Shown: positions 19,829 to 34,556 of the stretch, in pieces
Numbering within the stretch: the stretch's first letter is position 1
How the letters are laid out: each line of letters begins with the position of its first letter
DNA from: a virus
Taxonomy: Duplodnaviria > Heunggongvirae > Uroviricota > Caudoviricetes
Reading direction: 5' to 3' (one strand)
Virus record (IMG/VR): IMGVR_UViG_2698536428_000017
Length of the DNA: 40,320 nt
Notes under the pieces: generated by a model
Database searches by the model: none
Seen by the model: the letters and a program-made list of their open reading frames with translations, nothing else
What the model was told of the DNA's origin: nothing
Program-made: the position numbers and the translations under genes

Positions 19829-20401
19829 TTAGCCCATCATTTTTTTATACGCTTCTGCAGCCTGCTCCGGCGTTAAGTTGGTAATTTCTGTTCTGACTGG
19901 TCCTCCGTCAGCACCAGTCACTTCATTTTTGACGTTGTCTTTAAACGCCTGAACAGAAACATGACGCCCAAGCAACTCCAGGTTTTTAACCTTATCAGGC
20001 CACTTAATCTTTTTAAGGATCCCGACCATTTCTCTGTCATCTCCTCGCCCCTCAAACATTTCAGCGAGGTTAAATCCACTCAGGTACCGACGCCACGATT
20101 CCGGCCACGCAGACAGAGGCTTAATACTTAAATCGTCCTCCAGGATGTCAGCCACATCGAGCCTGTCGATCTCAACCAGTCGCATCAGCACATAATTCGC
20201 ATCAATGCCCAGTTGATCAATACGCTCCTGCTTTAGCTCGTTAATACGGGCGCGTATCTCAGGTTTACCGTATAGTTCAGCCCCCGTAACATGTGCTCGC
20301 CTGGAGACGTAGCCTGCGCGAATAGCTGCTTGTGTAGCATTCAGATCGACAAGAAACTCGCGACAAAACACCTCGTGTTTTGCTTTCAGCTTCTTAGTCA
20401 T
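19829..20401 (-). CDS. Terminase small subunit
   Basis: 190 aa; N-terminal HTH-like segment ([23 protein letters not shown]) typical of small terminase subunits; precedes large subunit. Confidence 0.6.
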
Positions 20402-20462
20402 TTTATTTTCCAGTTATCAGGTCATTATCGAAGCCCCTCCTGGAAGAGCTTCTGTAATGCTA

Positions 20463-20987
20463 TTACCGGGACTGTTCTATTTGTCGGACACCAGCCAACT
20501 GGTTATTCGCCTTCTCGATGGCCGCCAACAGTGGGTTAATCCACAGAACAGCCTGGCAATATGTCAACGTTCTGGTGGTAGTGGCACGATCACCGGCTGA
20601 GTCAATGTCCCCGGAATCGGCGTGCAATGCGCTGGCGCGTAAACGGTTCGCGTAGTTGAGCAACCCGACAGCAATATCAACAGGAACAGGGAAATCACAG
20701 TTCTTTTCACGGAGCAGAACCTCACGGTATTTGATGACTGTCTTCTCGTGACCGATGTCGACCAGAGAATTTAATCGGCTTGCGTTTTCTGCTATCTGGT
20801 TAAAACGATTGAAGTTTAATGCCTGATTAGCTATCACTTTCCCTTGATATTCAGCTTCACCTTCCGCTTTATCAGCCCGCAACTTTTCTGCCTGATACTT
20901 GCTGTGGTAATGGTTTGCAGACCAGACGAGCGCCCCAAAGGCAGAGAAGAAAAATGCCGCGATGACAATCTTATAAGTCAGCTTCAT
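20463..20987 (-). CDS. Rz-like i-spanin
   Basis: 174 aa; N-terminal TM helix ending WSANHY, matching lambda Rz (WAVNHY); coiled-coil periplasmic part; follows endolysin. Confidence 0.6.
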   Translation of the reverse strand: MKLTYKIVIAAFFFSAFGALVWSANHYHSKYQAEKLRADKAEGEAEYQGKVIANQALNFNRFNQIAENASRLNSLVDIGHEKTVIKYREVLLREKNCDFPVPVDIAVGLLNYANRLRASALHADSGDIDSAGDRATTTRTLTYCQAVLWINPLLAAIEKANNQLAGVRQIEQSR

Positions 20988-21447
20988 TTACCACCCCACC
21001 AGCATCTTTAAACCTGGAAATCAGGTCACCGATTTTATGTTCATACTGACCGTAACCTGCACCAGGTAACGACGCCCAGATATTGCTGCAACGGTCGATT
21101 GCCTGACGAATATCGCCACGGTCAATCATCGGTAAAGCGCCACGCTCTTTAATCTGCTGCAGCGCCACAGCGTCCTGACTTTCTGGCGAAAAATCTTTCA
21201 GGCCAAGCTGCTTACGGTAGGCATCCCACCAGCGTGAAAGAAGCTGATACCGTCCTGCGGCTGTTGATTTAAGCTTCGGGTTTAGCGTGACAAGTTTGCG
21301 AGGGTGATCGGAGTAATCAGTGAACAACTCACCTCCGACGATAACGTCATAACCGTGATTACGTGTCGGTTGTCGCCCGTTATCCGTTCCTTCTGACCAT
21401 GCCACCATATCCAGGAAAGCTTTACGTTGGGAATTTAGTGTCTGCAT
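20971..21447 (-). CDS. Endolysin, lambda R-like lytic transglycosylase
   Basis: 158 aa; near-identical over most of its length to lambda R as recalled (NSQRKAFLDMVAWSEGTDNGRQPTRNHGYDVIVGGELFTDYSDHPRKL...). Confidence 0.8.
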   Translation of the reverse strand: MQTLNSQRKAFLDMVAWSEGTDNGRQPTRNHGYDVIVGGELFTDYSDHPRKLVTLNPKLKSTAAGRYQLLSRWWDAYRKQLGLKDFSPESQDAVALQQIKERGALPMIDRGDIRQAIDRCSNIWASLPGAGYGQYEHKIGDLISRFKDAGGVVNEADL

Positions 21448-21450
21448 GAA

Positions 21451-21792
21451 TTACTCCTTAGAGCCACCAAACTTGTTACCGATTACTCGCATTGCAGCCC
21501 CACGAATAGCATCCACACCGATCAGCCCAACACCACCACCAATGGCAACAGAAAGCGATTTAGGCCATCCAACATACTCAAGAGCGGATGCAAAGGTCAG
21601 CGTCAGAGCACCACAGAGCAAAATCTCAAGCGTTTTTCGTTTCCAGCCGCCGCCACCGCCAAAATAGGCAATGCGCAAGCCAGCCATAACAATTGACATA
21701 ACCACTGCGCCCAACGGCGTATCTCCACGCCACCAACTTTGTAAGAGTTCCAGTAAGTCAGGCCAGGAATGAGGAGCATTGTGCATTTTCAT
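21451..21792 (-). CDS. Holin, lambda S-like with dual-start MKM motif
   Basis: Start placed at ATG 21792 (MKMHNAP...) preceded by GGAGGTG; track ORF start at 21810 lies inside the RBS; hydrophobic helices. Confidence 0.6.
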   Translation of the reverse strand: MKMHNAPHSWPDLLELLQSWWRGDTPLGAVVMSIVMAGLRIAYFGGGGGWKRKTLEILLCGALTLTFASALEYVGWPKSLSVAIGGGVGLIGVDAIRGAAMRVIGNKFGGSKE

Positions 21793-21893
21793 ACTTCCCA
21801 CCTCCGCCATTACGGGGTGTTGTTGAAAGGCGGGCCCTGCGTATACGCCCGTAGGATTGGGTTATGAGCCGTCCTTCGGTGGGCCCTGAATAC

Positions 21894-21916
21894 AAAAAAA
21901 GTTCGCCATAGCGAAC
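21894..21916 (-). terminator. tR'-like intrinsic terminator between Q and the lysis genes
   Basis: Hairpin GTTCGC-CATA-GCGAAC (21901..21916) followed on the minus strand by U7 (21900..21894). Confidence 0.65.
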
Positions 21917-22195
21917 CTTGTTAAATTTGTTAAAAAAGGAAGTTATTTAACATAATGTATGTTATAGGAACCACACGATCACCGCTCGCAATAGATTTGC
22001 GATGAAAGGCCTATTTAATCAACTTAAGTGGTCCAGAATGACGAAATTCGAGTGAATAAGAGGTGCATAAAAAAGGGCAAAAACTGCATAGCGTTTTTTC
22101 GCGACGAAAACCCTGTTTTATTAACTTTTACTGAGAATAGAGCATTAAAAAAGCCCCAATGATTTGGAGCTCTTCGTTGAGGTCAGAAATTCAAC
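21917..22195 (-). promoter_or_regulatory. Expected late promoter and Q-utilisation region (not resolved)
   Basis: Inferred from lambdoid architecture: about 280 bp non-coding between Q stop and the terminator; no convincing -35/-10 pair found by eye. Confidence 0.3.
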
Positions 22196-22630
22196 TCATA
22201 CCAGCGTAGCGCAGTTTTTGCGTAGCGCACTAATACTTTTTTCATCCCTTTGAATTTCGACCTCAGGATCCATCTGAAGGCTCACACCCAGCATGCAGAG
22301 ACACCCCTCAATGAATCCCTCTGCTACCTGCAACTGCTGGCGGATAAATCCTTCAGAACAGCGACGCCGCCGCCCTATCTCACGTTTGCTTAACCCGTAG
22401 ACGTAGTACAGCATAATGACGTCCAGTTCCTCAGGCTTACGGACCTGCTGCAGCCGACAGACGCAAGCATCGATAATCAGGCCATCGTCGTCACAGCAAC
22501 TCAGCCTGCCAGGCGAGCTGCTGACTACCAGCCCTTTAAATCCCGTCGCTATTGGAGCCCAGCTCACTGTGGTGTTGCTATCGGCAGCCCATCCACCCCA
22601 GCGCTCTAAAACCTGTTGAATATTACGCAT
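22196..22630 (-). CDS. Late antiterminator Q (QuuD-like)
   Basis: 144 aa; N-terminus MRNIQQVLERWGGWAA...GFKGL...CCDDD matches recalled QuuD-type Q proteins of E. coli lambdoid prophages. Confidence 0.75.
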   Translation of the reverse strand: MRNIQQVLERWGGWAADSNTTVSWAPIATGFKGLVVSSSPGRLSCCDDDGLIIDACVCRLQQVRKPEELDVIMLYYVYGLSKREIGRRRRCSEGFIRQQLQVAEGFIEGCLCMLGVSLQMDPEVEIQRDEKSISALRKNCATLV

Positions 22631-22694
22631 AGCTCTGACCTCTACGTTTTGCTACGAAAAATTTTTCTGAGAACTACGTCTGTTTATCCGTGGG

Positions 22695-22703
22695 TGTGGA
22701 TAA
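22695..22703 (-). promoter_or_regulatory. DnaA box (TTATCCACA)
   Basis: Plus strand TGTGGATAA is the reverse complement of the DnaA consensus; sits inside inverted repeat TTATCC-N8-GGATAA next to the iterons. Confidence 0.5.
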
Positions 22704-22755
22704 CGCAGTTCCGATCCGCATATTGCATGTATCAACATGCAAAAAGTTGCTAATT

Positions 22756-22948
22756 CGGAGTGGAACCACCTGCCCCCACCTGGAACCACCTTTTCCTAAC
22801 CTTTCCCTCAATCGACTTATATATATATGGGGTTTCTAGTAGAAAGGCGGTTCCAGTGGTTCCAGTAGTTCCGCCCCGCTTGCCACAAGGTCTGCAAGGT
22901 GGAACCACCTTCTCTTCTAGGTGGTTCCGCGTGGTTCCAGCGGTTCCC
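22756..22948. repeat. Iteron array of replication origin (core GGAACC / GGTTCC)
   Basis: TGGAACCACC at 22761 and 22781; GGTGGAACCACC at 22898; reverse copies at 22849, 22858, 22867 (9 bp period) and 22920, 22931, 22941 (10 bp period); AT-rich TTATATATATAT at 22818..22829. Confidence 0.6.
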
Positions 22949-25103
22949 AAACCTTGCATTTTTTCCCCCCAATTCGCCTTTGGGCACGCTTATACCCGCA
23001 ATTTTGCAAAACATTACTAATTCGCATTTCTTCGCGTTTTCCGATGCGGTCAGGATTTAGCCCAATCGCATCACGCAAAACATCACTTGCGCGTAAAAAT
23101 TCGCAATTTCGCGGAAGTTCATTAGTCATCAGGTCGGGCGTGTCGAGCCATTTCTCTACCGTTTCAAGCCAAGCATCCTTGATGGTGTACTGTTCATGGA
23201 CACTCGCTGCCAGTTGTTCAGCCTCACGGAACTGGATACCCCCCAGACGCTGAAACACCTCACGAGCCTCAGCCCAAAGTAAAAGGAGATCTCTTTTTAT
23301 CGCTTTCACGTCGACTTTCGACACTTCCACGGGGAGCCAGCGACGGTTACCAGTCTTGTCCGCAAGGAATTCGTCCTCATTAGTGGTACCAACGAACACC
23401 AGGCGACGAGGAAACTGGGTGGCGAACTCCCGGTATTTCGGGATCCAGTTTTCGTGAGTACGCGTCACAAACGCTTTGATTGACTCCAGCTCTTTGGTAT
23501 TAAGTCCGCGCAGTTCACCAATCTCTGCCACCAGCCGACCACGCATTTTTCGAGCGAGATCATCGTCTTTTTCGGCAAAAGAGATTTCAGTAAAAAACGC
23601 AGGATCAGGGCTCAGTGCCTCCACTCCGGAAGACTTACCGCAGCCCTGCGGACCAACGAGGATCGGCACCATATCCGCTTTGATGCCTGGCTCCAGTACT
23701 CGCCCCGCCAACGCGGTCCACATGTACATAGACACCGCACGGGTATAAGGCGTGTCGGCGGTACCGAAGTGCGTATGGTAGAAACATTCGATGCGCGGCA
23801 CGCCATCCCACTCCAGTCCGTTCAGCCAGGTGATCGCTGAATCGAATGGTTGTTCATCGGCTGCAAGTAACACCACATCGCGAATAAGTTCACGGCCAAC
23901 AGGTTTAAATCCCCGCTTTTCCATCGTGATGCGCAGGCGCGCATAATCCGCATCGGTGAATGCCCGCCATTGTCCGGATCCTGCCGGGGCAAACATGATT
24001 TCGTCGCGGAACTGGTCAAAGCGAATATCGATGTCCACAAAATCAGAGCGTACTACTGCTTTGGCTGCATTGCTGATGGTTGCCTCGATACGCCCCCATT
24101 TATCACGCTCGAAAGCAGGCAGCGGTAAAGGTTCCGCCACTTCGATGCTGGTCAGATCTTCGAAATCGTCGTTGCGGATCCCGATGGCATTCAGGAAATC
24201 TCCGTCATCACGATGCGCGCAACTGGCATGCAGGCATTTAAAATGCCCCTGCTCAAAGCCTGCGGTTCCCGCAGGAAAATAAACTGTGCTTGTTGGATCG
24301 CCTCCGCTACTGTGGCCGTCTTCAAACGGACAGCGGATATATCGTTCACCGTTTGCGCCATCCAGCAGCGTCCAGCCATTGGCATCAAGATATTCAGCTG
24401 TATCATCCGTCGCGCCGGGCGTGAATGCTGAACGGTCGCGCATCTTCGTGTTGCCCGCTTCGGTGGTTACCGACACAGGGAGTTGTTCAGCCAGGCGCTG
24501 CCACAGCGTTTCAAGCTGCTCACCTGTAATAGCCGGAGGTTCATCCGGCAAACCACCGTCCCATTCAATACGCGCGCCGCTGCTGTGCGTACCACAGGCA
24601 ACGAACTGCTGCCCGTTCGCCAGCAACTCGATAATGCCCATATCCCCCGCCAGGCGATGGATACGCTTACGGAAATCACCATCAACGGCCAGCAGATACA
24701 GACACTTATTACTGTTTGCTCGCCAGCGTCGCGGCGGCGACTCACCCAGAAGTTGCACAAGTGTTTTGCGAATATCTGCCTGAATGTCTTCATCTTCGCT
24801 ATCGCAGTCCAGCGCCAGCCAGCCATGGCCTGTACGCACGCAGATGCCATAATCCGGTTCATTCGACCAGCGGGCAAAATCATGCTCAGTAACAACATGC
24901 CCGGTCCATTGAGCAATACCTGTGACCTGGCGGTCCCGGTTATAGCGACTCGGCGTCTTACCCAACGCTTTCAATTTACTATCAGGGGATATGGTCGCAC
25001 TGGGGTTACATACAACTGGGAGAAGATGAGCAGTCCGCCCCAATACCAGGTCGAAATGAAACCACTCATCAGGCGTAGCTCCCCATGGTTTGCTATCGGA
25101 CAT
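22917..25103 (-). CDS. Primase-helicase (N-terminal primase-polymerase-like domain, C-terminal P-loop NTPase)
   Basis: 728 aa; Walker A in ILVGPQGCGKSSG; domain order resembles P4 alpha / VirE-type replication proteins; last 10 codons overlap the iterons. Confidence 0.75.
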   Translation of the reverse strand: MSDSKPWGATPDEWFHFDLVLGRTAHLLPVVCNPSATISPDSKLKALGKTPSRYNRDRQVTGIAQWTGHVVTEHDFARWSNEPDYGICVRTGHGWLALDCDSEDEDIQADIRKTLVQLLGESPPRRWRANSNKCLYLLAVDGDFRKRIHRLAGDMGIIELLANGQQFVACGTHSSGARIEWDGGLPDEPPAITGEQLETLWQRLAEQLPVSVTTEAGNTKMRDRSAFTPGATDDTAEYLDANGWTLLDGANGERYIRCPFEDGHSSGGDPTSTVYFPAGTAGFEQGHFKCLHASCAHRDDGDFLNAIGIRNDDFEDLTSIEVAEPLPLPAFERDKWGRIEATISNAAKAVVRSDFVDIDIRFDQFRDEIMFAPAGSGQWRAFTDADYARLRITMEKRGFKPVGRELIRDVVLLAADEQPFDSAITWLNGLEWDGVPRIECFYHTHFGTADTPYTRAVSMYMWTALAGRVLEPGIKADMVPILVGPQGCGKSSGVEALSPDPAFFTEISFAEKDDDLARKMRGRLVAEIGELRGLNTKELESIKAFVTRTHENWIPKYREFATQFPRRLVFVGTTNEDEFLADKTGNRRWLPVEVSKVDVKAIKRDLLLLWAEAREVFQRLGGIQFREAEQLAASVHEQYTIKDAWLETVEKWLDTPDLMTNELPRNCEFLRASDVLRDAIGLNPDRIGKREEMRISNVLQNCGYKRAQRRIGGKKCKVWEPLEPRGTT

Positions 25104-25106
25104 GGG

Positions 25107-25307
25107 TTACACCTTTTGTCTAGCTGTCACTTCCTGAAAAAGTTTTTCTATCGCACGTACTGTAGAAAAGCGAGGGTCAGAATGAACCCCGGTAAGAAGC
25201 CGACTAATAGAAGACTGCTTCACGCCTGCAATTTCGGCAATTTGGTTTTGGGTATACCCTGAATCAATCAAGCTTTTGACCATCTCTTGTGGTGTTAGTC
25301 CGGACAT
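25107..25307 (-). CDS. Cro-like HTH regulator
   Basis: 66 aa; HTH (YTQNQIAEIAGVKQSSISRLLTG); GGAGA RBS; divergent from repressor and first gene of the leftward operon. Confidence 0.6.
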   Translation of the reverse strand: MSGLTPQEMVKSLIDSGYTQNQIAEIAGVKQSSISRLLTGVHSDPRFSTVRAIEKLFQEVTARQKV

Positions 25308-25448
25308 ATTTAAGTCTCCACTTTCGTCTATAGCGCAAATTTATACGAAAACGGATTACTCAGCAATACAGCAATTCTATGTCATCCTAGATTAAAATAT
25401 CCGATAACGCATAATCACCGTCCCTGTATACAACATGGATGAATCCAA
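25308..25448. promoter_or_regulatory. Immunity switch region with divergent promoters and operators
   Basis: 141 bp between divergent Cro-like and CI-like genes; candidate leftward -10 TATAAA (25345..25340); motifs ATAGCGCAAAT and ATAACGCATAAT; operators not resolved. Confidence 0.45.
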
Positions 25449-26123
25449 ATGATTGATACTACCGATATCCTTTCTCAAAACATCAAGTACCTGATGGACA
25501 AAGCCAAGATAAGCTCGATAACTGAGCTGGCACGTCGGTTACAGCTGAACCAACCAACGCTACACAGGCTGGTATCAGGAGAGGTGAAAGATCCGAAATA
25601 CGCAACGTTAAAGCAGATCGCCGACTACTTCCACGTGTCACCAATAGACTTGGCAGAAAGGAGCCTTCAAGAAATGGAGAAAGAGGACGCGACAGGTATA
25701 AAAACGTATATTTCTCTTAGGTTTAATAAAGTACCTGTTTTGGGAAACACTCAGCTAGGCGTTGGAGGACTTTGGAGCGACACCCAATATTCAGTAGGTA
25801 GCAGTGATGGTTTCATATACTGGCCGACAAAGGATGAAGATGCATACGCCCTGAAATGTGTTGGTGATTCAATGATGCCTAGAATCAAAGAGGGGGAGTT
25901 CGTAATCGTCGAACCCAACCACGACTACACTCCTGGTGATGAAGTACTTGTGGTTACCCGGGAAGGTGAGGTCATGGTTAAAACCTTCTTGTTCGAACGC
26001 GATGGCCTGTTCCATCTAATGTCTGTAAATGAAGATCATCCACCAGTCAGAGTACCACGCGAAAACATTGAAAAAATCCATTACGTGGCGGGGATCGCCA
26101 AATCCGCGCTACGTATGTACTAA
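25449..26123 (+). CDS. CI-like repressor (N-terminal HTH, C-terminal S24 LexA-like peptidase)
   Basis: 224 aa; HTH region (SITELARRLQLNQPTLHRLVSG); S24 catalytic motifs GDSM and downstream Lys (VMVKTF). Confidence 0.8.
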   Translation: MIDTTDILSQNIKYLMDKAKISSITELARRLQLNQPTLHRLVSGEVKDPKYATLKQIADYFHVSPIDLAERSLQEMEKEDATGIKTYISLRFNKVPVLGNTQLGVGGLWSDTQYSVGSSDGFIYWPTKDEDAYALKCVGDSMMPRIKEGEFVIVEPNHDYTPGDEVLVVTREGEVMVKTFLFERDGLFHLMSVNEDHPPVRVPRENIEKIHYVAGIAKSALRMY

Positions 26124-26153
26124 CCTTTACAGTCTGATAACTTACTTCTGATC

Positions 26154-26185
26154 AAACCGCTCTCCACAAGGGCGGTTTTCTTATT
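26154..26185 (+). terminator. Candidate terminator after the repressor gene
   Basis: AAACCGC...GCGGTTT 7-bp stem followed by TTCTTATTT; the loop is long (11 nt), so weak. Confidence 0.35.
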
Positions 26186-26206
26186 TGCAAAATAATTCAT
26201 TTTCGT

Positions 26207-26235
26207 ATTGACACAAAATCCCATAACGCATATAA
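26207..26235 (+). promoter_or_regulatory. Near-consensus sigma70 promoter (TTGACA-17-TATAAA)
   Basis: TTGACA at 26207..26212, 17 nt spacer, TATAAA at 26230..26235; followed by palindrome CGCATAATTAATGCG at 26244..26258. Confidence 0.4.
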
Positions 26236-26429
26236 ATACGATATCGCATAATTAATGCGTTTTTTAATACTGGCTCTTTAACAAACTGAACCGCGTGACA
26301 GGTAAGCCGCAGTACTCCTGGCAAAACGAAATAGCACCCGATGGGATCGAGGTAAGCGCCGAGTCCGTATGCGTACGGTAAGCGTAGAGGACAACACCGC
26401 GACAAACTGATAAGTCACGCAAGTTGAAA

Positions 26430-26460
26430 CGCCCCGACGATGGGGCGCTTAGTTCCTTTT
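26430..26460. terminator. Hairpin CGCCCC-GACGAT-GGGGCG with U-rich flanks
   Basis: 6-bp GC stem; U-rich sequence on both strands; probably the ancestral terminator of the 174-aa gene, now separated from it by IS2. Confidence 0.4.
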
Positions 26461-26613
26461 GGGGTGGGGTGAAGATCAGTCCATTGAGTCAATCCGAAGT
26501 TCAGCATCTACCACTACACCACTAGACTGGCCCCCTGAATCTCCAGACAACCAGTATCACTTATTTAAGTGATAGTCTTAATACTAGTTTTTAGACTAGT
26601 CATTGGAGAACAG

Positions 26614-26979
26614 ATGATTGATGTCTTAGGGCCGGAGAAACGCAGACGGCGTACCACACAGGAAAAGATCGCAATTGTTCAGCAGAGCTTTGAACCGGGG
26701 ATGACGGTCTCCCTCGTTGCCCGGCAACATGGTGTAGCAGCCAGCCAGTTATTTCTCTGGCGTAAGCAATACCAGGAAGGAAGTCTTACTGCTGTCGCCG
26801 CCGGAGAACAGGTTGTTCCTGCCTCTGAACTTGCTGCCGCCATGAAGCAGATTAAAGAACTCCAGCGCCTGCTCGGCAAGAAAACGATGGAAAATGAACT
26901 CCTCAAAGAAGCCGTTGAATATGGACGGGCAAAAAAGTGGATAGCGCACGCGCCCTTATTGCCCGGGGATGGGGAGTAA
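26614..26979 (+). CDS. insC: IS2 transposase OrfA (InsC)
   Basis: Translation [41 protein letters not shown]... matches IS2 InsC; true ATG at 26614 (track ORF begins upstream). Confidence 0.9.
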
Positions 26980-27842
26980 GCTTAGTCAGCCGTTGTCTCC
27001 GGGTGTCGCGTGCGCAGTTGCACGTCATTCTCAGACGAACCGATGACTGGATGGATGGCCGCCGCAGTCGTCACACTGATGATACGGATGTGCTTCTCCG
27101 TATACACCATGTTATCGGAGAGCTGCCCACGTATGGTTATCGTCGGGTATGGGCGCTGCTTCGCAGACAGGCAGAACTTGATGGTATGCCTGCGATCAAT
27201 GCCAAACGTGTTTACCGGATCATGCGCCAGAATGCGCTGTTGCTTGAGCGAAAACCTGCTGTACCGCCATCGAAACGGGCACATACAGGCAGAGTGGCCG
27301 TGAAAGAAAGCAATCAGCGATGGTGCTCTGACGGGTTCGAGTTCTGCTGTGATAACGGAGAGAGACTGCGTGTCACGTTCGCGCTGGACTGCTGTGATCG
27401 TGAGGCACTGCACTGGGCGGTCACTACCGGCGGCTTCAACAGTGAAACAGTACAGGACGTCATGCTGGGAGCGGTGGAACGCCGCTTCGGCAACGATCTT
27501 CCGTCGTCTCCAGTGGAGTGGCTGACGGATAATGGTTCATGCTACCGGGCTAATGAAACACGCCAGTTCGCCCGGATGTTGGGACTTGAACCGAAGAACA
27601 CGGCGGTGCGGAGTCCGGAGAGTAACGGAATAGCAGAGAGCTTCGTGAAAACGATAAAGCGTGACTACATCAGTATCATGCCCAAACCAGACGGGTTAAC
27701 GGCAGCAAAGAACTTTGCAGAGGCGTTCGAGCATTATAACGAATGGCATCCGCATAGTGCGCTGGGTTATCGCTCGCCACGGGAATATCTGCGGCAGCGG
27801 GCTTGTAATGGGTTAAGTGATAACAGATGTCTGGAAATATAG
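26937..27842 (+). CDS. insD: IS2 transposase OrfB (InsD), DDE catalytic domain
   Basis: 301 aa matching IS2 InsD as recalled; overlaps insC in -1 frame, A6G slippery run present. Confidence 0.9.
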
Positions 27843-27877
27843 GGGCAAATCCAACCACCACCAAAGAGAACTGCTAA

Positions 27878-28402
27878 TCATCTGGCAGGTTGTAACGGTG
27901 CAGGAGTTTTGCCACTGACTTCTATATTTCGGGGAAATTTATATTCAGCGGAGCATTTATGACACTTGAGAATTTTATAAGCGGCATTAGAAGTATGGTA
28001 TTGAAGTATAGACTTCATACCCGACTCATAGCATGTAGTACAAAGATAATGAGGCTTGAACTCAGGATCGTCAGTAGGCTTCAGTACATAGACCACCGTA
28101 TTGGTAATCGGGTGGTACATTTCATAGTTCATTTTCTCACTATCCCAATCCTGTTTCTTTTCCAGAAGGGATTCGAGTTCAACAATGCGCTGTTTAGCTT
28201 CGTTCAAAAGCTCCGTTAGTGCGAATTGTCCAGTACGCGCATCAATTAGTTTATCAAGTAGATCGATAGTTTTACTTTTAACATTGTAATCCACCTGCAA
28301 CGCATTAACTTCTTTTGCTAAATCAACAGCACCTTTCAAAGCACCACCAGCACTAGTGGCCGCCTCAGTTATACGCCGTACAAGTCCTTTTTCTTCAGAC
28401 AT
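27878..28402 (-). CDS. Hypothetical coiled-coil plus zinc-ribbon protein, 174 aa
   Basis: ATG at 28402; C-terminal CxxC (CTTC) and CxxC (CHKC) pairs about 20 residues apart; about 42% GC; convergent with repressor gene. Confidence 0.6.
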   Translation of the reverse strand: MSEEKGLVRRITEAATSAGGALKGAVDLAKEVNALQVDYNVKSKTIDLLDKLIDARTGQFALTELLNEAKQRIVELESLLEKKQDWDSEKMNYEMYHPITNTVVYVLKPTDDPEFKPHYLCTTCYESGMKSILQYHTSNAAYKILKCHKCSAEYKFPRNIEVSGKTPAPLQPAR

Positions 28403-28419
28403 CTTAATTCTCTCTAAAA

Positions 28420-28470
28420 CTATAGGGGTAAAGAGATATTAGCCGAATTCTCGCTGTAGGGGTACAGAGA
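28420..28470. repeat. Two 17-bp direct repeats (CTATAGGGGTAAAGAGA / CTGTAGGGGTACAGAGA)
   Basis: 15 of 17 identical, 34 bp apart (28420..28436 and 28454..28470), in the divergent control region between the 174-aa gene and the rightward operon. Confidence 0.4.
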
Positions 28471-28541
28471 GAGCCATCTCGTCTGACGTGGTTAAAAGCA
28501 GGCATTCGCTGACATCCAAGTAATTGCTGTGTGTAGCCTTT

Positions 28542-28567
28542 GCCCGCCTCAAGTGACGGGCTTTTTT
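28542..28567 (+). terminator. Intrinsic terminator or attenuator upstream of the replication operon
   Basis: GCCCG...CGGGC stem (28542..28546 / 28557..28561) followed by T6 (28562..28567) on plus strand. Confidence 0.45.
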
Positions 28568-28626
28568 ATGTCTGAAAGCGCACTCGCAACAGCGTGCTCC
28601 CCGATATGAAAAAAGGAATACAACCG

Positions 28627-28776
28627 ATGAAACCTGAATACCTCCATCGACTGACGGGGCGCGATGTTCTCCGTTATCGCCGTAAAAACTTCGATTTGAT
28701 GACCGGTCTGGCCGTTGCCACTGCGCTCGGTCTGATCATCACTTTCATTCTCCTTGTAGCGAGGACCACAGTATGA
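28627..28776 (+). CDS. Small membrane protein, about 49 aa
   Basis: ATG at 28627 with AAAGGAA RBS (track ORF begins at an upstream GTG); C-terminal TM helix; stop overlaps next start (ATGA). Confidence 0.35.
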   Translation: MKPEYLHRLTGRDVLRYRRKNFDLMTGLAVATALGLIITFILLVARTTV

Positions 28777-29675
28777 GTTTAGAAACCAGTCTCGAACTTA
28801 ATAATCAACTTCTGGCACAACATAATGCGCTGCTTGAACGTCTTATCCGCACAATGGCATCAGGCATTGTTATGCATCCTGACACGATTTCACGAGTGCA
28901 GGAATGTCGGGATACAGCAACTGAAACTGAAAATATGTCAGCGGCAATGACACTGGATGATCTGGAGTTCAGCGACGTTATCGCACTGGCTGGTTTCTAC
29001 CCGGTAGCCACCCCTATCACAGAAGACATGCTGCAACGTGCTGTTGCCTACCGTGATGCTGAAGGCGATAAACGAGTAGTTCAGATTGATGCTCTCGACA
29101 GCGCATTGCAGGGCGTCAAACGAGCCAGGGCGCTGCTTAAACCTGCTCTCCTGGACCTGTCCCGTAACATCCTTAAGTTCTGGGACGACCTGCCAACCAT
29201 CGGCGAGCGACGTGTTTTTGCCGAGCAGCTACTTGATGCACCTGCGGATGGGCGTGATGAAGTTAAGCCGAAAAAGGCCAGTAACAAAGATGGAGAACGC
29301 ACGGGGCCGTTTTACGTCAAAAATGTATCCGGCACAGCAGCCAGTGAACTCCACACCTTACGCAAGTTGAACGAGATGCTGAAAAAAGGCCATATCGAGA
29401 TCAACCGTGTTGAGTACCTTCAGCTGCAAGAAGAATTTGCACGCAGAGACGCAGCAAATTCCAGCCAGAATCATGACGCCAAAGATGACCATACAATTGA
29501 TTTCGCGGCACTACGCAAACAAGCTGAAGGGTTGATCCTCCAGTTAGCAAAAGGGGGTTACCGGGCAGAAGCTATTGCAATTCTGGAAAAACAGGGAGCC
29601 AGGAAACTTGGTGAAGTAACGGATGAAAATCTCGCTGAAGTAATCACCCTGGCTGAAAAAGCACTGGAGGGTTAA
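28773..29675 (+). CDS. Hypothetical protein, 300 aa
   Basis: ATG with GAGGA RBS; normal GC; no family recognised. Confidence 0.55.
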
Positions 29676-29677
29676 TC

Positions 29678-30979
29678 ATGCCAGACGTTCATGCACAACT
29701 TTCTCCATCATCAGCGCATCGATGGATGCGCTGCCCAGGAAGTCTGGCGCTGGAGGCCACACAACCGGATAAAGAAACAACTTTTGCAATCGAGGGCACT
29801 GCAGCGCACGCGCTTGCTGAAAAAGTTCTACGAAACAGGCAAAGCTACCCGGAACACTACGCCGGATGCAATGTTTCTATGTTTCTCGGCTCATACCCCC
29901 TTCGCGAAAATCCTGATGATACATCTGGCCCACAGGTGGATGATGAAATGGTCGAAGCCGTTGGCCGGTATGTTGATACGGTCTGGACTCTTGCACAGAA
30001 TAATGAACTATTGGTTGAACAACGTGTTGATTTCTCACATATAACGGGTGTGGAAGAATCTTTCGGAACTGCCGACGGCATAATCATTGCTGGTAGCGAA
30101 TTACAAATCCACGACCTGAAATATGGCAAAGGCGTCCGCATTGATGCAGAACAAAATGAGCAACTACAACTGTATGCTCTGGGTGCGCTCGAACAATTCA
30201 GCATGCTGTATGACTTTGAGACTGTAAGATTATTTATTCACCAGCCAAGGCTCAACCACGTTTCAGAATGGTCGTTAACCGTACAGGAACTTCAGTCTTT
30301 CGGTGAACGGGCACTGGAGGCCGCAACCAGTGCGATCCTTGTTCTCAATATTGCTGAATGCGAAGGCATTGAGACACTACCGCTGGAAAACTTCATACCT
30401 GGAGAAAAACAGTGCCGCTTCTGTAAAGCAAAAGCTATTTGCACTGCCCAGAAAATGCAGCATTTACAAACAGCGGCCAGCGATTTTGAAGATCTGACAA
30501 AGCCTGTCAGCGAAATAATCTCCAATGCCAGCGCACGTGTACCTCTGTTAACCATTGAGCAGCTTGCGGAGATCTATAGCCAGGCCGACTTTATTGAATC
30601 CTGGCTAAAGGCAGTACGAGACCGGGTTCACAATGAACTCAATGCCGGACATCCGGTACCGGGGTTTAAACTGGTAACAGGAAAACAAGGTAACCGGGCC
30701 TGGAGTGATGAAGAGGCAGCTCGCGCACTTCTGAAGGACCAGTTCAGGTACAAAACTGAAGAAGTATTCGACTTTAAACTTATTAGCCCCACAAAAGCCG
30801 AAAAACTTATCAAAAAGGCCAGTCCGCGCCGTTGGTCAAAAGTCGAGGCACTGATAACACGAGCTGATGGTAAACCCACCATCGTTCCCGAGTCAGACCC
30901 ACGCCCCGCACTCAATATCAACCCTGTAAATGATTTCGACGACGTATCCGACGATACGCTAACCGCAGACCTCATCTGA
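29678..30979 (+). CDS. PD-(D/E)XK nuclease, Cas4/RecB-like with Fe-S cysteines
   Basis: 433 aa; N-terminal [15 protein letters not shown]; C-terminal C-x2-C-x5-C ([10 protein letters not shown]) with the N-terminal Cys gives the four-Cys pattern of Cas4-like nucleases. Confidence 0.65.
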
Positions 30980-30994
30980 TTTAAGGAAATACCC

Positions 30995-31543
30995 ATGAAA
31001 CTGAAGCTGAACAATGTTCGTCTGGCCTTCCCGTCTCTGTTTGAAGCTAAAACTGTAAACGGCGAAGGCGATCCACGTTTCTCCGCAGTATTTTTAATGT
31101 CACCCAAACACCCACAACTGGAAGAAATCCGTAAAGCTATGAAGCAGGTAGCGAAGGAAAAATGGGGAGAGAAGTGGGAGCCCATTTATAACCAACTGGA
31201 GAAAAAACTCAATCTGTGCCTGCATGATGGTGATGAAAAAGCAGAGTATGAAGGCTTCCCCGGCAATTTCTTCCTGAATGCTGCTAACAAAGCGCGCCCA
31301 GCTGTTCTTGATCGCGATCGTTCGCCACTTATTCAGGCTGATGGACGTCCCTATGCAGGGTGCTATGTAAACGCCGTTATCGATATCTGGGCACAGGACA
31401 ATAATTTCGGTAAACGCATTAATGCCTCACTCGGCGGAGTCCAGTTCCTGCGAGACGGCGATGCATTCGCTGGCGGCGGAGTGGCAAGCGCTGACGATTT
31501 CGACGATATCAGCGAAGGTGCTGATGCTGAAGCACTGATTTAA
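30995..31543 (+). CDS. ssDNA-binding-like protein (DUF2815-like by recollection)
   Basis: 182 aa; N-terminus MKLKLNNVRLAFPSLFEAK; acidic C-terminal tail (DDFDDISEGADAEALI) as in SSB proteins. Confidence 0.5.
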   Translation: MKLKLNNVRLAFPSLFEAKTVNGEGDPRFSAVFLMSPKHPQLEEIRKAMKQVAKEKWGEKWEPIYNQLEKKLNLCLHDGDEKAEYEGFPGNFFLNAANKARPAVLDRDRSPLIQADGRPYAGCYVNAVIDIWAQDNNFGKRINASLGGVQFLRDGDAFAGGGVASADDFDDISEGADAEALI

Positions 31544-31559
31544 CCCTACTTCATAGACG

Positions 31560-31577
31560 CCCGGTTAAATACCGGGC
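31560..31577. other. Stable hairpin between convergent genes
   Basis: GCCCGG-N7-CCGGGC; no clean U-tract on either strand, so not a canonical terminator. Confidence 0.3.
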
Positions 31578-31595
31578 TGCTGATTAGGCGTATAA

Positions 31596-32225
31596 TCACT
31601 CAGGAATCTTAATCTTCCTCAATTCTTTATTTAGTTCACAGATCTTCTTCTTAGACGGGAAAGTATCATACATCCAAAAACCAACAGTCTCTAAAACTAT
31701 TGTCATAACCATATACACAAGATAATTTAAAAGGCCTTCATTTTGCCCTATGGAAATAATGCAGATAATAGAAAAAAGGATAAACAGCACAAAACACAGA
31801 AAGGAAAACAGACGACTAATAATAAATAAAAAACCTGAAAAATTAACATTGATGAAAAACACTCCGTTATCTTTCTCTATATAATTCTGAAGCTTAATCA
31901 CCTGATTTATATACTGTCTTTTTTCTAATCTATTGCAAATGTAAATAACATCACTTCGGTTATAAGAAGATTGCAATTTCAGCGCATCACGAATAATTTT
32001 ATCATTTATTCTTTTTTCTATGGCACTCTTATCCTCCTTATCCAGATAACGTTCATACTTAACTAAATATAAAATTAACTTCTTGACATATTTAGGCTCT
32101 TTATACTTATAATTAAAAATGATCTTTCTTATCCAGACTCCCATAACAATCAAACATGAAAAAATATATCCAGCTATTTTCTCCAGATGCTCTGTATGGT
32201 CAATCAAGTATTGGATCATATGCAT
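31596..32225 (-). CDS. Hypothetical multi-pass membrane protein, 209 aa, strongly AT-rich
   Basis: About 23-35% GC in sampled 60-nt lines against about 52% flanking; predicted TM near residues 18-38 and two C-terminal TM helices; antisense to the replication operon. Confidence 0.6.
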   Translation of the reverse strand: MHMIQYLIDHTEHLEKIAGYIFSCLIVMGVWIRKIIFNYKYKEPKYVKKLILYLVKYERYLDKEDKSAIEKRINDKIIRDALKLQSSYNRSDVIYICNRLEKRQYINQVIKLQNYIEKDNGVFFINVNFSGFLFIISRLFSFLCFVLFILFSIICIISIGQNEGLLNYLVYMVMTIVLETVGFWMYDTFPSKKKICELNKELRKIKIPE

Positions 32226-32271
32226 AATTAATCTTTTAATCAGTTAATAGAATAAAAACCAAGGTAAACAC

Positions 32272-34335
32272 ATGTCCAATATACTATGGGGCGACCTGGA
32301 AACCTATTGCGAAATCCCTATTACGAACGGTACCCATGCGTATGCCGAAGGCGTTGAAGTGATGCTGTTCGCATGGGCTATCAACGACGGGCCAGTAAAC
32401 GTATGGGATATCACTGCCGGTGGTGGTATTCCACACGGCTTATACGAAGCAATCGCAGCCCCTGAAACCCTGCTTTATTTTCATAACTCTCACTTCGACC
32501 GCACCGTCCTGCGTTATGCAATGCCGCGACTGGCACCGCCAGTCGAACGTTGGCGCGACACGATGGTGCAGGCGCTGGCGCACGGTCTCCCGGGGTCTCT
32601 GGGGGAACTCTGCGAAGTACTAGGCGTCCCGCAAGACAAAGCGAAGGACAAAGAAGGTAAAGCGCTGATCCAGCTGTTCTGTAAGCCACGCCCGAAAAAC
32701 AGCAAACTGCGCCGGGCCACCAGCAAAACCCACCCGGAAGAATGGCGGCGCTTTGTTGCTTACGCCGGACTGGATATCGAGGCAATGCGCGAAGTCTATA
32801 AACGTCTGCCGAAGTGGAATTATCAGGGGACAGAACTGGCGCTCTGGCATCGTGATCAGCAGATCAATGACCGGGGCGTCTGCATGGACGTGGAACTCGC
32901 ACGCGCTGCGATCGACGCGGTAGACCAGGAACAAAAGCGCCTGGCAAAGCGTACACAGGAAATGACTGATGGCGAAGTGCAGGCAGCCACACAACGAGAC
33001 GCGTTGATTAAGCACATTGTTGAATCCTACGGTGTGGAGCTACCAGACATGCAACGCAGTACTCTGGAACGTCGTATTGCCGACCCCGATTTACCATCTG
33101 CCGTGAAAGAACTGCTGGCTATCCGCCTGCAGGCCAGTACTACCAGCACCAGTAAATACAAGGCACTGATGAAAGGCGTAAGCCACGACGGGCGCTTACG
33201 CGGTACGCTACAGTTCTGCGGGGCGTCACGTACCGGTCGTTGGGCCGGACGGCTATTCCAGCCCCAGAACCTTCCCCGCCCTTCACTAAAACAGGAACAA
33301 ATAGACGAAGGCATCGAAGCACTGAAAGCCGGATGTGCAGACCTGCTGTTTGACAATATCATGGAACTAACCAGTTCAGCGTTACGTGGCTGCATTATCG
33401 CGCCAACAGGCAAAAAGCTGGTGGTAAGTGACTTGTCGAACATTGAAGGCCGTATGCTGGCATGGCTGGCGGGAGAAGAATGGAAACTGAATGCATTCAG
33501 AGAGTACGACGCCGGAACGGGTCCGGACTTATATAAACTGGCGTATGCAAAAGCTTTCGATATTGCACCAGATGATGTTGATAAACACATGCGTCAGATC
33601 GGTAAAGTCATGGAACTCGGTCTGGGTTATGGAGGAGGTGTATCGGCTTTCATCACTTTTGCTCTGGTTTACGGTCTCGATCTCGACGGGCTGGCGAACG
33701 CCGCACTGCCAAACATTCCCCGCGATGTTATCCGCGAGGCGAAAAGCTGGTACGACGAATCGGTTAAACGTAAATCGACCTACGGGCTTTCTGAACGGGT
33801 ATTTATCGCCTGCGACTCACTTAAACGTCTCTGGCGCCGGGCGCATCCCGCGACCTGTGATTTCTGGTACGAACTGGAGTGCACCGTCCGCACAGCAATC
33901 GCCACACCGCAAAAAACATTGTATTGCGGTTATCTTAAAATCCGCCGCGATGGCGCGTGGCTGCGCATACAGCTACCATCCGGACGCGCTGTATGCTACC
34001 CGTCTCCGGTTATCGAACAAGGGAATATCACCTACATGGGTGTTAACTCTTATTCGCGTAAATGGCAACGACTCAAAACCTACGGCGGAAAGCTGGTGGA
34101 GAACGTCACCCAGGCGGCCGCCCGCGACGTTCTGGCCGGAAACATGCCGCTTATCGAAGATGCCGGTTACAGCATTGTGCTGACGGTACACGACGAGGTG
34201 ATCACCGAATCACCTGACACAGAAGATTTCAACGATAAAGCGCTTTCCGCGCTTCTCTCCACTAACCCCGAATGGGCGCCAGATATCCCACTGAACGCTG
34301 GCGGTTTTGAGGCGTACCACTACCGTAAGGATTAA
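32272..34335 (+). CDS. DNA polymerase, family A with 3'-5' exonuclease domain
   Basis: 687 aa; exo motif DLETY near N-terminus; Pol motif A (DLSNIEGR), motif B ([16 protein letters not shown]), motif C (VHDEV). Confidence 0.85.
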
Positions 34336-34340
34336 CTCCT

Positions 34341-34556
34341 ATGTCATTTAAATACCGGGACAATCCACTTTATTACAGGGCTGCAAGGGAGGCTTTGCGA
34401 CTTGAACAATCCGGCGAATATGACCGGGCAGCGAAGGTCTGGGCAAAAGCCAACCGCGAATCACATCACGAACTGAATCAGGAATGGAGTGAACGCAGAT
34501 CTGATTTTTGCCTGATGCAGAATATGCGTGAAAAGCGTAAGGCGGTCGAAGAATGA
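34341..34556 (+). CDS. Small PerC/ANR-like regulator (tentative)
   Basis: 71 aa; pattern A..LE..G.Y..AA..W...N..W..R..FC resembles small PerC/ANR-type regulators as recalled; AAGGA RBS. Confidence 0.35.
   Translation: MSFKYRDNPLYYRAAREALRLEQSGEYDRAAKVWAKANRESHHELNQEWSERRSDFCLMQNMREKRKAVEE

Follow-up and report, generated by a model that had tools for sequence, protein, structure and literature searches.

Organization of the locus

We analyzed a 40,320-nucleotide (nt) stretch of viral DNA (IMG/VR record IMGVR_UViG_2698536428_000017, Caudoviricetes), which is referred to below as the window. The region of interest is a prophage immunity region in which a Cro-like helix-turn-helix (HTH) gene and a cI-like repressor gene are divergent, and the repressor gene is followed by a predicted promoter and a noncoding leader. 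From its boxA element to a GC-rich hairpin, the leader forms a cassette of about 180 nt, which is present as a single copy in the window and lies upstream of an early replication operon (Table 1). The cassette encodes a conserved RNA structure, and we propose that the locus is probably a repressor-controlled early promoter joined to a nut/put-like leader of the replication operon, which would serve processive antitermination. The operon encodes, in order, a small membrane protein (start at 28606 or 28627, end at 28776), a 300-amino-acid (aa) protein, a DUF2800 exonuclease, a DUF2815 Gp2.5-like single-stranded DNA-binding protein (SSB) and a DNA polymerase. Counterparts of the cI-like gene carry a repressor annotation in phages 606R2 and YeP4.

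Table 1. Positions of features in the window, with the basis for each assignment or a description.
Feature	Position	Strand	Basis or description
Primase/helicase gene	22917-25103	minus	
Cro-like HTH gene	25107-25307	minus	
Operator-like 14-bp motif, cI-cro intergenic copies (best sites)	25343-25356, 25399-25412		Same motif as the promoter sites
cI-like repressor gene (HTH + S24 peptidase)	25449-26123	+	Open reading frame (ORF); directly 5' of leader region; PHROG phrog_4 'transcriptional repressor', E 1e-34
Intrinsic terminator of cI-like repressor gene	26154-26185	+	10-bp stem AAACCGCTCT/AGGGCGGTTT, then T-rich tail (terminator scan)
Three operator-like 14-bp sites	26195-26208, 26218-26231, 26236-26249	.	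Overlap -35, spacer and -10/+1 of promoter
Sigma-70 promoter (predicted), TTGACA-17 nt-TATAAA	-35 26208-26213, -10 26231-26236	+	Read from sequence; conserved along with repressor module
5' hairpin CGCAT-AATTA-ATGCG, then T6	26245-26259, T6 26260-26265	+	Terminator-like in scan; weak fold, -4.5 kcal/mol
boxA GCTCTTTAACAA	26273-26284	+	Predicted NusB/NusE loading site on nascent RNA; unpaired in consensus structure
Structured RNA domain, ~150 nt	26293-26420	+	Consensus folding and covariation
Long interrupted stem, P1	26293-99/26414-20	+	
P1b	26301-03/26406-08	+	
P1c	26306-10/26399-403	+	
P1d	26312-14/26395-97	+	
P1e	26316-19/26388-91	+	
Invariant 16-nt single strand GGCAAAACGAAAUAGC	26320-26335	+	Inside junction; unpaired
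Hairpin P3	26336-26353	+	Bulged A at 26350
Hairpin P4	26356-26385	+	Inner stem 26365-26378
Hairpin P5, CGCCCC-GACGAT-GGGGCG	26430-26447	+	End of conserved cassette; separate from junction domain
IS2, 1331 bp, complete	26523-27853	+	5-bp target duplication ACCAC at 26518-26522 and 27854-27858; InsA/InsB ORFs
174-aa accessory gene (phrog_1244)	27878-28402	minus	C-terminal CxxC...CxxC; opposite orientation between leader and operon
GU-rich block ATTGCTGTGTGTAGCCTTT	28523-28541	+	Directly 5' of terminator; conserved in almost all E. coli-type loci
Conserved intrinsic terminator	Stem GCCCG 28542-46/CGGGC 28557-61, T6 28562-67	+	Directly 5' of operon's first ORF; sequence and fold
Early replication operon	28606-34335	+	ORFs, PHROG matches, RefSeq names
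209-aa gene within operon span	31596-32225	minus	

A predicted early promoter overlapped by operator-like sites

The original prediction for this DNA, which was made from the sequence alone, placed a near-consensus promoter at 26207..26235 and described it as an orphan. The promoter TTGACA-17-TATAAA is present, although those coordinates were one base off and the true span is 26208-26236, with a predicted transcription start near 26243. Our consensus promoter scanner passed over it because the scanner demands that the -10 hexamer end in T. The promoter is no orphan: it lies downstream of the cI-like gene, and in Yersinia phage YeP4 and many contigs it is directly 5' of the early replication operon. 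In YeP4, whose repressor is 61% identical, no gene intervenes, and the promoter and leader lead directly into a plus-strand operon that encodes a 45-aa protein, a 244-aa protein, DUF2800 and DUF2815.

The three operator-like sites over the promoter share a partly palindromic 14-base-pair (bp) motif, ATnCGAWAWCGnAT, with the cI-cro intergenic region, and its copies emerged as repeat families D1 and I1. When the window was searched with the pattern ATNCGAWAWCGNAT at no more than one mismatch, five of six sites fell in the promoter or cI-cro regions. Furthermore, the 18-nt promoter-spacer sequence AAAATCCCATAACGCATA recurs directly downstream and in the cI-cro intergenic region, which gives 4 matches in the window versus 0.07 expected. 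The YeP4 sites keep their positions with changed bases, and in a second immunity type (L027) the repeats upstream of boxA are likewise common to its own cI-cro intergenic region. These sequence patterns suggest that the cI-like repressor probably occupies the three sites over the promoter in the lysogen. By analogy with lambda PL, we infer that the layout is that of an operator-controlled early promoter, which follows the repressor gene and has the same reading direction.

The palindrome and T6 that had been predicted at the start site are also present (26245-26265), and of the two functions suggested for them, operator or attenuator, the operator fits the motif shared with the cI-cro intergenic region. 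The left arm of this 5' hairpin belongs to the third operator-like site. The hairpin is specific to the immunity module: CGCAT/ATGCG recurs with loop or tail changes in two relatives (L016 and L013), YeP4 has another hairpin, and other immunity types have none.

A conserved leader begins at a perfect boxA

A conserved, unannotated copy of the region is carried by 92 of 5426 complete E. coli genomes (about 1.7%), and the region also occurs in 4 E. coli phages, 3 Yersinia phages and more than 100 viral or metagenome contigs. In every one of the roughly 130 related loci, from phages, prophages and metagenomes, the leader is flanked by a repressor gene on one side and the early replication operon on the other, and it is sense-oriented upstream of that operon. 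A tblastn map showed that gene order relative to the cassette is kept in more than 60 loci. The repressors at the fetched loci share 25% to 100% identity with the window cI, which indicates that the set covers several unrelated immunity types. Promoter/operator sequences vary with the type of repressor while the leader stays constant, and in an alignment of 40 representative loci the upstream sequences are unrelated between immunity types and conservation begins exactly at (C)GCTCTTTAACAA.

The RNA form of boxA is bound by NusB-NusE, which nucleates a Nus-factor complex on RNA polymerase. The boxA of the leader, which is invariant in all relatives and emerges about 30 nt into the predicted RNA, agrees with the core of the ribosomal RNA operon (rrn) boxA at 12 of 12 positions and is identical or near-identical to UGCUCUUUAACAA, which places it in the rrn type. 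The E. coli rRNA boxA is ugcucuuuaacaa (PMC2724277 Table 1), and when the rrn leader was used as a query, each of the 5426 E. coli genomes gave a match (171/171 identity among the matches listed). The gamma-proteobacterial boxA consensus is GYTCTTTAANA (PMC5725501), and GCTCTTTAACA at 26273-26283 is the only perfect match to it in the window. The leader thereby carries the early-leader boxA (CGCTCTTA or GYTCTTTAANA) of a lambda-type nut site. When viral contigs were scanned with CTGGCAAAACGAAA alone, seeking cassettes that lack boxA, there were only chance matches among the matches listed.

We also encountered loci that share only boxA and CTGGCAAAA with the cassette (L030/L055 and L051), and these were not counted as relatives: in L030, CTGGCAAAA lies inside a minus-strand ORF and the covariance model gives E = 0.11, and the coincidence of boxA with CTGGCAAAA occurs in many unrelated metagenome sequences. 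L030 (7125-8040 of IMG/VR contig 3300039346_000024) and about 15 similar loci belong to a lambdoid-type prophage, in which a 224-aa CI-like repressor is followed by a terminator and a TTGACA promoter. At these loci, CGCTCTTTAACAA lies about 100 nt after the promoter and is followed by a convergent lipoprotein-like gene, with no obvious N gene nearby. They constitute another early leader with a full rrn-type boxA and without the folded domain.

The leader encodes a conserved RNA fold

Downstream of boxA, the long interrupted stem P1-P1e closes a junction that holds the invariant strand and hairpins P3 and P4, and hairpin P5 follows separately. We scored pairing over 44 consensus pairs, using distinct sequences only, as the percentage of cells paired and the number of pairs changed on both sides. 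In a structure-blind MAFFT alignment of 50 distinct sequences (A3), 94.4% of cells are paired and 12 of the 44 pairs changed on both sides, which exceeds both the shuffled controls (5.1 +/- 1.7; 0/500 reach 12) and controls with slid partners (at most 5). A covariance-model alignment of 59 distinct sequences (A5) gave 95.8% paired, with two-sided changes at 30 of 44 pairs (shuffled, 12.2 +/- 2.4; slid, at most 6), counts that lean towards the model's structure, which was derived from the same sequences, and that carry no correction for phylogeny. In A5, all 7 pairs of P3 covary, as do 5 of the 6 pairs of P5 (helix 7), which is 98.3% paired. The Yersinia type was misaligned in the MAFFT alignment for RNAalifold, and subfamily alignments together with the covariance model were used instead.

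The cassette falls into a minimum of five lineages (E. coli, L027, L023 and Yersinia types, plus L244). The metagenome lineage L244 shows compensatory changes in P1 (GCACUG/CAGUGC to GCAUCG/CGAUGC) and in P1d (UUGCAU/AUGCAA to UCGCAU/AUGCGA). The inner stem of P4 is the second palindrome of the original prediction, CCGTATGCGTACGG at 26365-26378, and its hairpin has undergone compensatory change in L039 (CCGUG/CACGG). On these comparisons of sequence, the covariation support for the fold appears good. A candidate early hairpin, ACUG/CAGU (26285-88/26310-13), has a U-A/A-U swap in its middle pair, yet it is mismatched in 14 of 50 sequences and was left outside the model; it may be a transient fold.

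Three copies of GGTAAGC are present as predicted (26301, 26351 and 26377), and each bridges consecutive helices: it covers the last part of the first, an unpaired A/U stretch of two or three, and the beginning of the second. However, they do not form a conserved repeat family: GGTAAGC is not above chance over the whole window (6 found versus 3.55 expected; 19/100 shuffles reach 6), and the three copies are not kept in Yersinia-type relatives. Similarly, the GC hairpin at which the transcript had been predicted to end is real and corresponds to P5, but its 3' tail on the plus strand, CUUAGUUCCUUUU, which had been described as U-rich, is not a canonical U-tract, and P5 is therefore not a textbook intrinsic terminator on that strand. 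The suggested covariance search against Rfam was run and gave no match: none of its 4227 families matched the whole window at gathering scores, and a search of 25000-28000 at E values up to 10 returned chance-level matches only, none of which lie inside 26243-26460.

We found no credible ORF between the promoter and 26522, as had been noted, and no frame is open in all lineages. Some annotation exists: in phage vB_EcoM-606R2, a 47-aa 'hypothetical protein' (URC08718.1; L002 5058-5201, which equals window 26181-26324 on the minus strand) spans the promoter, the operator-like sites and boxA. Other lineages do not maintain this reading frame, and it is probably spurious. The same annotation and the minus-strand frame that is open across the cassette in E. 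coli-type sequences are what a decayed protein-coding gene, or a set of chance features, would have in its favor. We give this explanation almost no credence, and homology to a decayed gene, which would have overturned the original prediction, was looked for and rejected. Every frame has stops in D- and Yersinia-type sequences, length differences between lineages are not multiples of three, substitutions preserve base pairs, and the annotated ORF crosses both the promoter and the module boundary. Taken together, the pairing, the covariation and the lack of a common frame bear out the earlier idea that a noncoding RNA is encoded here, one that is conserved and structured.

The leader precedes a conserved terminator and the replication operon

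In nearly all E. coli-type loci, a conserved intrinsic terminator stands just ahead of the first ORF of the operon, and its stems covary (GCCCG/CGGGC, GCCCCUC/GAGGGGC and GCCUGUC/GACAGGC). The start codon follows the U-run by 20-90 nt, and the terminator scanner also listed this terminator in L026. Nearly all E. coli-type loci also carry a conserved block before the terminator, AUUGCUGUGUGUAGUCUUU, and in our reading its GU-rich portion, CUGUGUGUAG, recalls the boxC of nut and rrn leaders. The terminator lies 257-957 nt from boxA in relatives and about 2.3 kb from it in the window, where IS2 extends the distance. In the L026 type, the leader measures 283 nt in total, too short to accommodate a second promoter, which indicates that the replication genes must be transcribed through the terminator. 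The boxA-terminator distance varies through insertions on either strand, which suggests that any signal for read-through must act processively rather than by way of a local alternative hairpin. One such local device was considered, in which GGCAAA of the invariant strand pairs with UUUGCC of the terminator 5' flank as an anti-terminator; it comprises 6 nt only, shows no covariation, is absent in the Yersinia type and is unsupported.

The terminator also bears on whether the transcript is a stand-alone, trans-acting small RNA (sRNA). Such an RNA would be about 205 nt if it ended at P5, or about 290 nt if it ended at the conserved terminator in insertion-free relatives, and it would act on host or phage targets or sequester a protein, with boxA merely shielding it from Rho. 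The predicted strong promoter, the conserved fold and the lack of an ORF are compatible with an sRNA, as is the L026 type, in which promoter to terminator defines an RNA of about 290 nt; the invariant 16-nt strand could serve as a seed or protein-binding site, and the GGA-containing P3 loops in our reading recall CsrA sites. We nevertheless regard an sRNA as unlikely, because the element holds a fixed sense position upstream of the same operon, for which many loci have no other promoter, because a 5'-terminal boxA is characteristic of leaders that act in cis, and because P5 has no U-tract on the plus strand and an intrinsic terminator comes only 80-780 nt after it. No complementarity to a target came to light either, although no search aimed at it was made. 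The original prediction of a free-standing sRNA of about 200 nt that ends at the GC hairpin is consequently not the best reading, given the perfect boxA at its start and the conserved terminator further downstream.

A terminator before the first ORF is also what would be expected if the leader were a negative or timing element resembling the suhB 5' untranslated region (UTR), in which the boxA/Nus complex promotes Rho termination or limits operon expression, or if the Nus complex were a folding chaperone for the leader. BoxA/Nus does repress suhB by promoting Rho termination (PMC5725501), and a long untranslated leader is a natural substrate for Rho. However, in suhB-type cases boxA and the start codon are no more than about 50 nt apart (PMC5725501), whereas here boxA is 218-1048 nt upstream of the first ORF, and the insertion-free operon has no other promoter, such that a purely negative element would block lytic growth. 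We therefore consider this explanation improbable.

The operon encodes replication genes, and a structured RNA that is transcribed from a predicted strong early promoter directly upstream of them could in principle prime or activate a phage origin, as do ColE1 RNA II and the T7 primary origin. A likelier origin lies elsewhere, at the GGTGGTTCC iteron cluster (22762-22938) by the primase/helicase gene; moreover, boxA has no known role in priming and no AT-rich unwinding region follows the domain, which together make an origin RNA very unlikely. The cluster comprises at least 7 copies of GGTGGTTCC / GGAACCACC (0-1 mismatch, both orientations) between the primase/helicase and Q-like antiterminator genes, and these repeats probably serve as iterons at the origin of phage replication.

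A model for processive antitermination

The position, conservation and structure of the leader favor, on balance, the reading that it is a nut/put-like antitermination leader of the replication operon behind a repressor-controlled early promoter. According to this model, induction would relieve repression and transcription would start near 26243. The perfect rrn-type boxA would then emerge and load NusB/E and other Nus factors. The folded domain (26293-26420) and the hairpin at 26430-26447 would act with boxA to stabilize or extend the modification of RNA polymerase, a role that we liken to that of boxB/N in lambda or put RNA in HK022. The modified polymerase would resist Rho over the long untranslated or antisense stretch, pass the intrinsic terminator (28542-28567) and express the genes for the membrane protein, exonuclease, SSB and DNA polymerase. 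There is precedent for both activities: BoxA/Nus complexes block Rho termination of rRNA and of long untranslated transcripts of CRISPR arrays (PMC5725501, PMC7665894), and put RNA, encoded just past HK022 PL, suppresses both intrinsic terminators and Rho-dependent ones with no protein factor (PMC9378689).

Several observations weigh against this model. The -10 hexamer TATAAA lacks the usual final T, and the window leader RNA is of ordinary stability (z = +0.76), which means that the structure was found through comparison of relatives. Most of the compensatory changes come from about five lineages, and independent covariation events are few for that reason. Yersinia-type leaders keep the domain, but their downstream hairpin is without a U-run, which indicates that the terminator is not universal. 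Antitermination by boxA alone, of the rrn type, is known mainly to counter Rho and not intrinsic terminators, which makes the extra activity given to the folded domain hypothetical. No boxB-like hairpin with a conserved purine-rich pentaloop follows boxA; the sequence instead enters the long-range helix P1, and the only small hairpins, P3 and P4, have loops that vary by subfamily (a 10-nt loop, GGG, AGGA and CGGA). N carries an arginine-rich motif and is normally encoded by the first gene after nutL. Among the early proteins, PHROG scans identified repressor, Cro-like, Q, primase, exonuclease and SSB but no N, although a very divergent N is possible. The first ORF of the operon, which follows the terminator, encodes a membrane protein of 49-56 aa, and the ORFs of the variable slot are not arginine-rich. 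Without a boxB-like hairpin and an N-like protein, the element is not a classical nut site. Finally, the covariance model, run with filters off, found nothing credible in HK022 20000-34500 (best score 11 bits), which argues against homology to put.

To our knowledge, processive antitermination of phage early genes occurs in two forms, namely N acting on boxA-boxB RNA and the protein-free put RNA of HK022. We tentatively raise the possibility, which we hold with less than even confidence, that the leader represents a third kind of phage early antitermination signal, in which a fold of about 150 nt is combined with a full rrn-type boxA, uses host Nus factors only or none, and resists both Rho and intrinsic terminators with no phage antiterminator protein. 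The phages concerned are a family (primase/helicase, DUF2800 exonuclease, Gp2.5-like SSB, PolA) in which neither N nor put was detected, yet the operon lies behind a conserved terminator. If the model is correct, the phage borrows the host rRNA antitermination machinery through RNA alone, and the element offers a compact system for studying the extension of Nus-complex activity to intrinsic terminators. The analysis also accounts for an unannotated 400-bp gap in many genomes. The conserved, covarying fold is new; in the literature searched, we found no prior description of the element, which is not proof of absence.

Comparison with known antitermination systems

The site nutL of lambda is a boxA-boxB site after PL, which is read by N plus NusA/B/E/G. 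Like nutL, the leader described here lies tens of nt after an early promoter behind cI that appears to be repressor-controlled, begins with boxA and has downstream terminators that must be passed for early genes to be expressed. Its boxA is thus situated as in a nut site, between the early promoter, whose control by the repressor is predicted, and the downstream terminators. However, its boxA is the full rrn type, GCUCUUUAACAA, whereas that of lambda is CGCUCUUA, and a covarying multi-helix domain of about 150 nt takes the place of the 15-nt boxB with its conserved purine-rich loop. As with putL/putR of HK022, a folded nascent RNA is located just after the early promoter in a phage without N-type antitermination, and we propose that it acts processively on intrinsic terminators at variable distance. 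In contrast, put is about 70 nt and consists of two stem-loops without boxA (PMC9378689), whereas the element here is about 180 nt and has boxA and a junction.

The rrn leader (boxB-boxA-boxC; NusA/B/E/G, SuhB, S4) shares the identical boxA core, and the GU-rich block (CUGUGUGUAG) further along the phage leader may recall its boxC. The two differ in that the rrn system is known for its effect on Rho-dependent termination, whereas the leader here belongs to a phage operon and is followed by an intrinsic terminator. Mimicry of the rrn leader beyond boxA was considered for GCAAAACGAAA (26320-26330, within the invariant strand), which resembles GCAAGACGAAA about 60 nt after boxA in the rrn leader (L288), but the similarity is not significant (406/2000 shuffles reach the score). 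The BoxA elements upstream of CRISPR arrays and in the suhB 5' UTR are likewise consensus sites close to the 5' end of long untranslated transcripts, but neither an adjoining conserved fold nor a downstream intrinsic terminator has been reported for them, and in suhB the boxA acts repressively, a short distance from the start codon. The mEpimmI phages are Nus-dependent, non-lambdoid phages with an N-like protein, Gp17, and three nut sites (PMC11893012). Judged by that description, they appear to be a different group: we found no N-like protein here, and the mEpimmI nutL lies upstream of the repressor gene, whereas boxA here lies downstream.

The leader-terminator stretch is an insertion hot spot

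In the window, the leader is separated from the operon by two insertions, the minus-strand 174-aa gene and IS2. The original prediction that an early promoter has been cut off by IS2 is essentially correct in that the promoter is severed from its genes, but IS2 accounts for one of the two insertions, and the 174-aa gene is also present in E. coli IAI1 (L001), from which IS2 is absent. IAI1 contains the same 399 bp between the repressor gene and the convergent 174-aa gene. Homology with the phage 606R2 group ends at 26459, and in the four E. coli phages a different minus-strand gene follows this point. Among relatives (L002, L008 and L031 were among those compared), the slot between leader and terminator contains the 174-aa gene, an alternative that is 45% identical, or small plus-strand ORFs of 64-69 aa, or is empty, and the stretch is an insertion hot spot used by accessory genes and by IS elements alike. 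We considered a tRNA fragment or attachment site at 26460-26522 and dropped the idea when a search for tRNA and tmRNA genes returned none.

IS2 is inserted 70 nt past the last hairpin of the leader in the orientation of the early promoter, which suggests that early transcripts would read into the IS2 transposase genes. When P5 is read on the minus strand (26430-26447; L008 4000-3981; L026 7072-7053), it is followed by TTTCAA(T/C)TT, and some variants score as a terminator. In that orientation, P5 may stop leftward transcription from inserted genes before it reaches the repressor gene.

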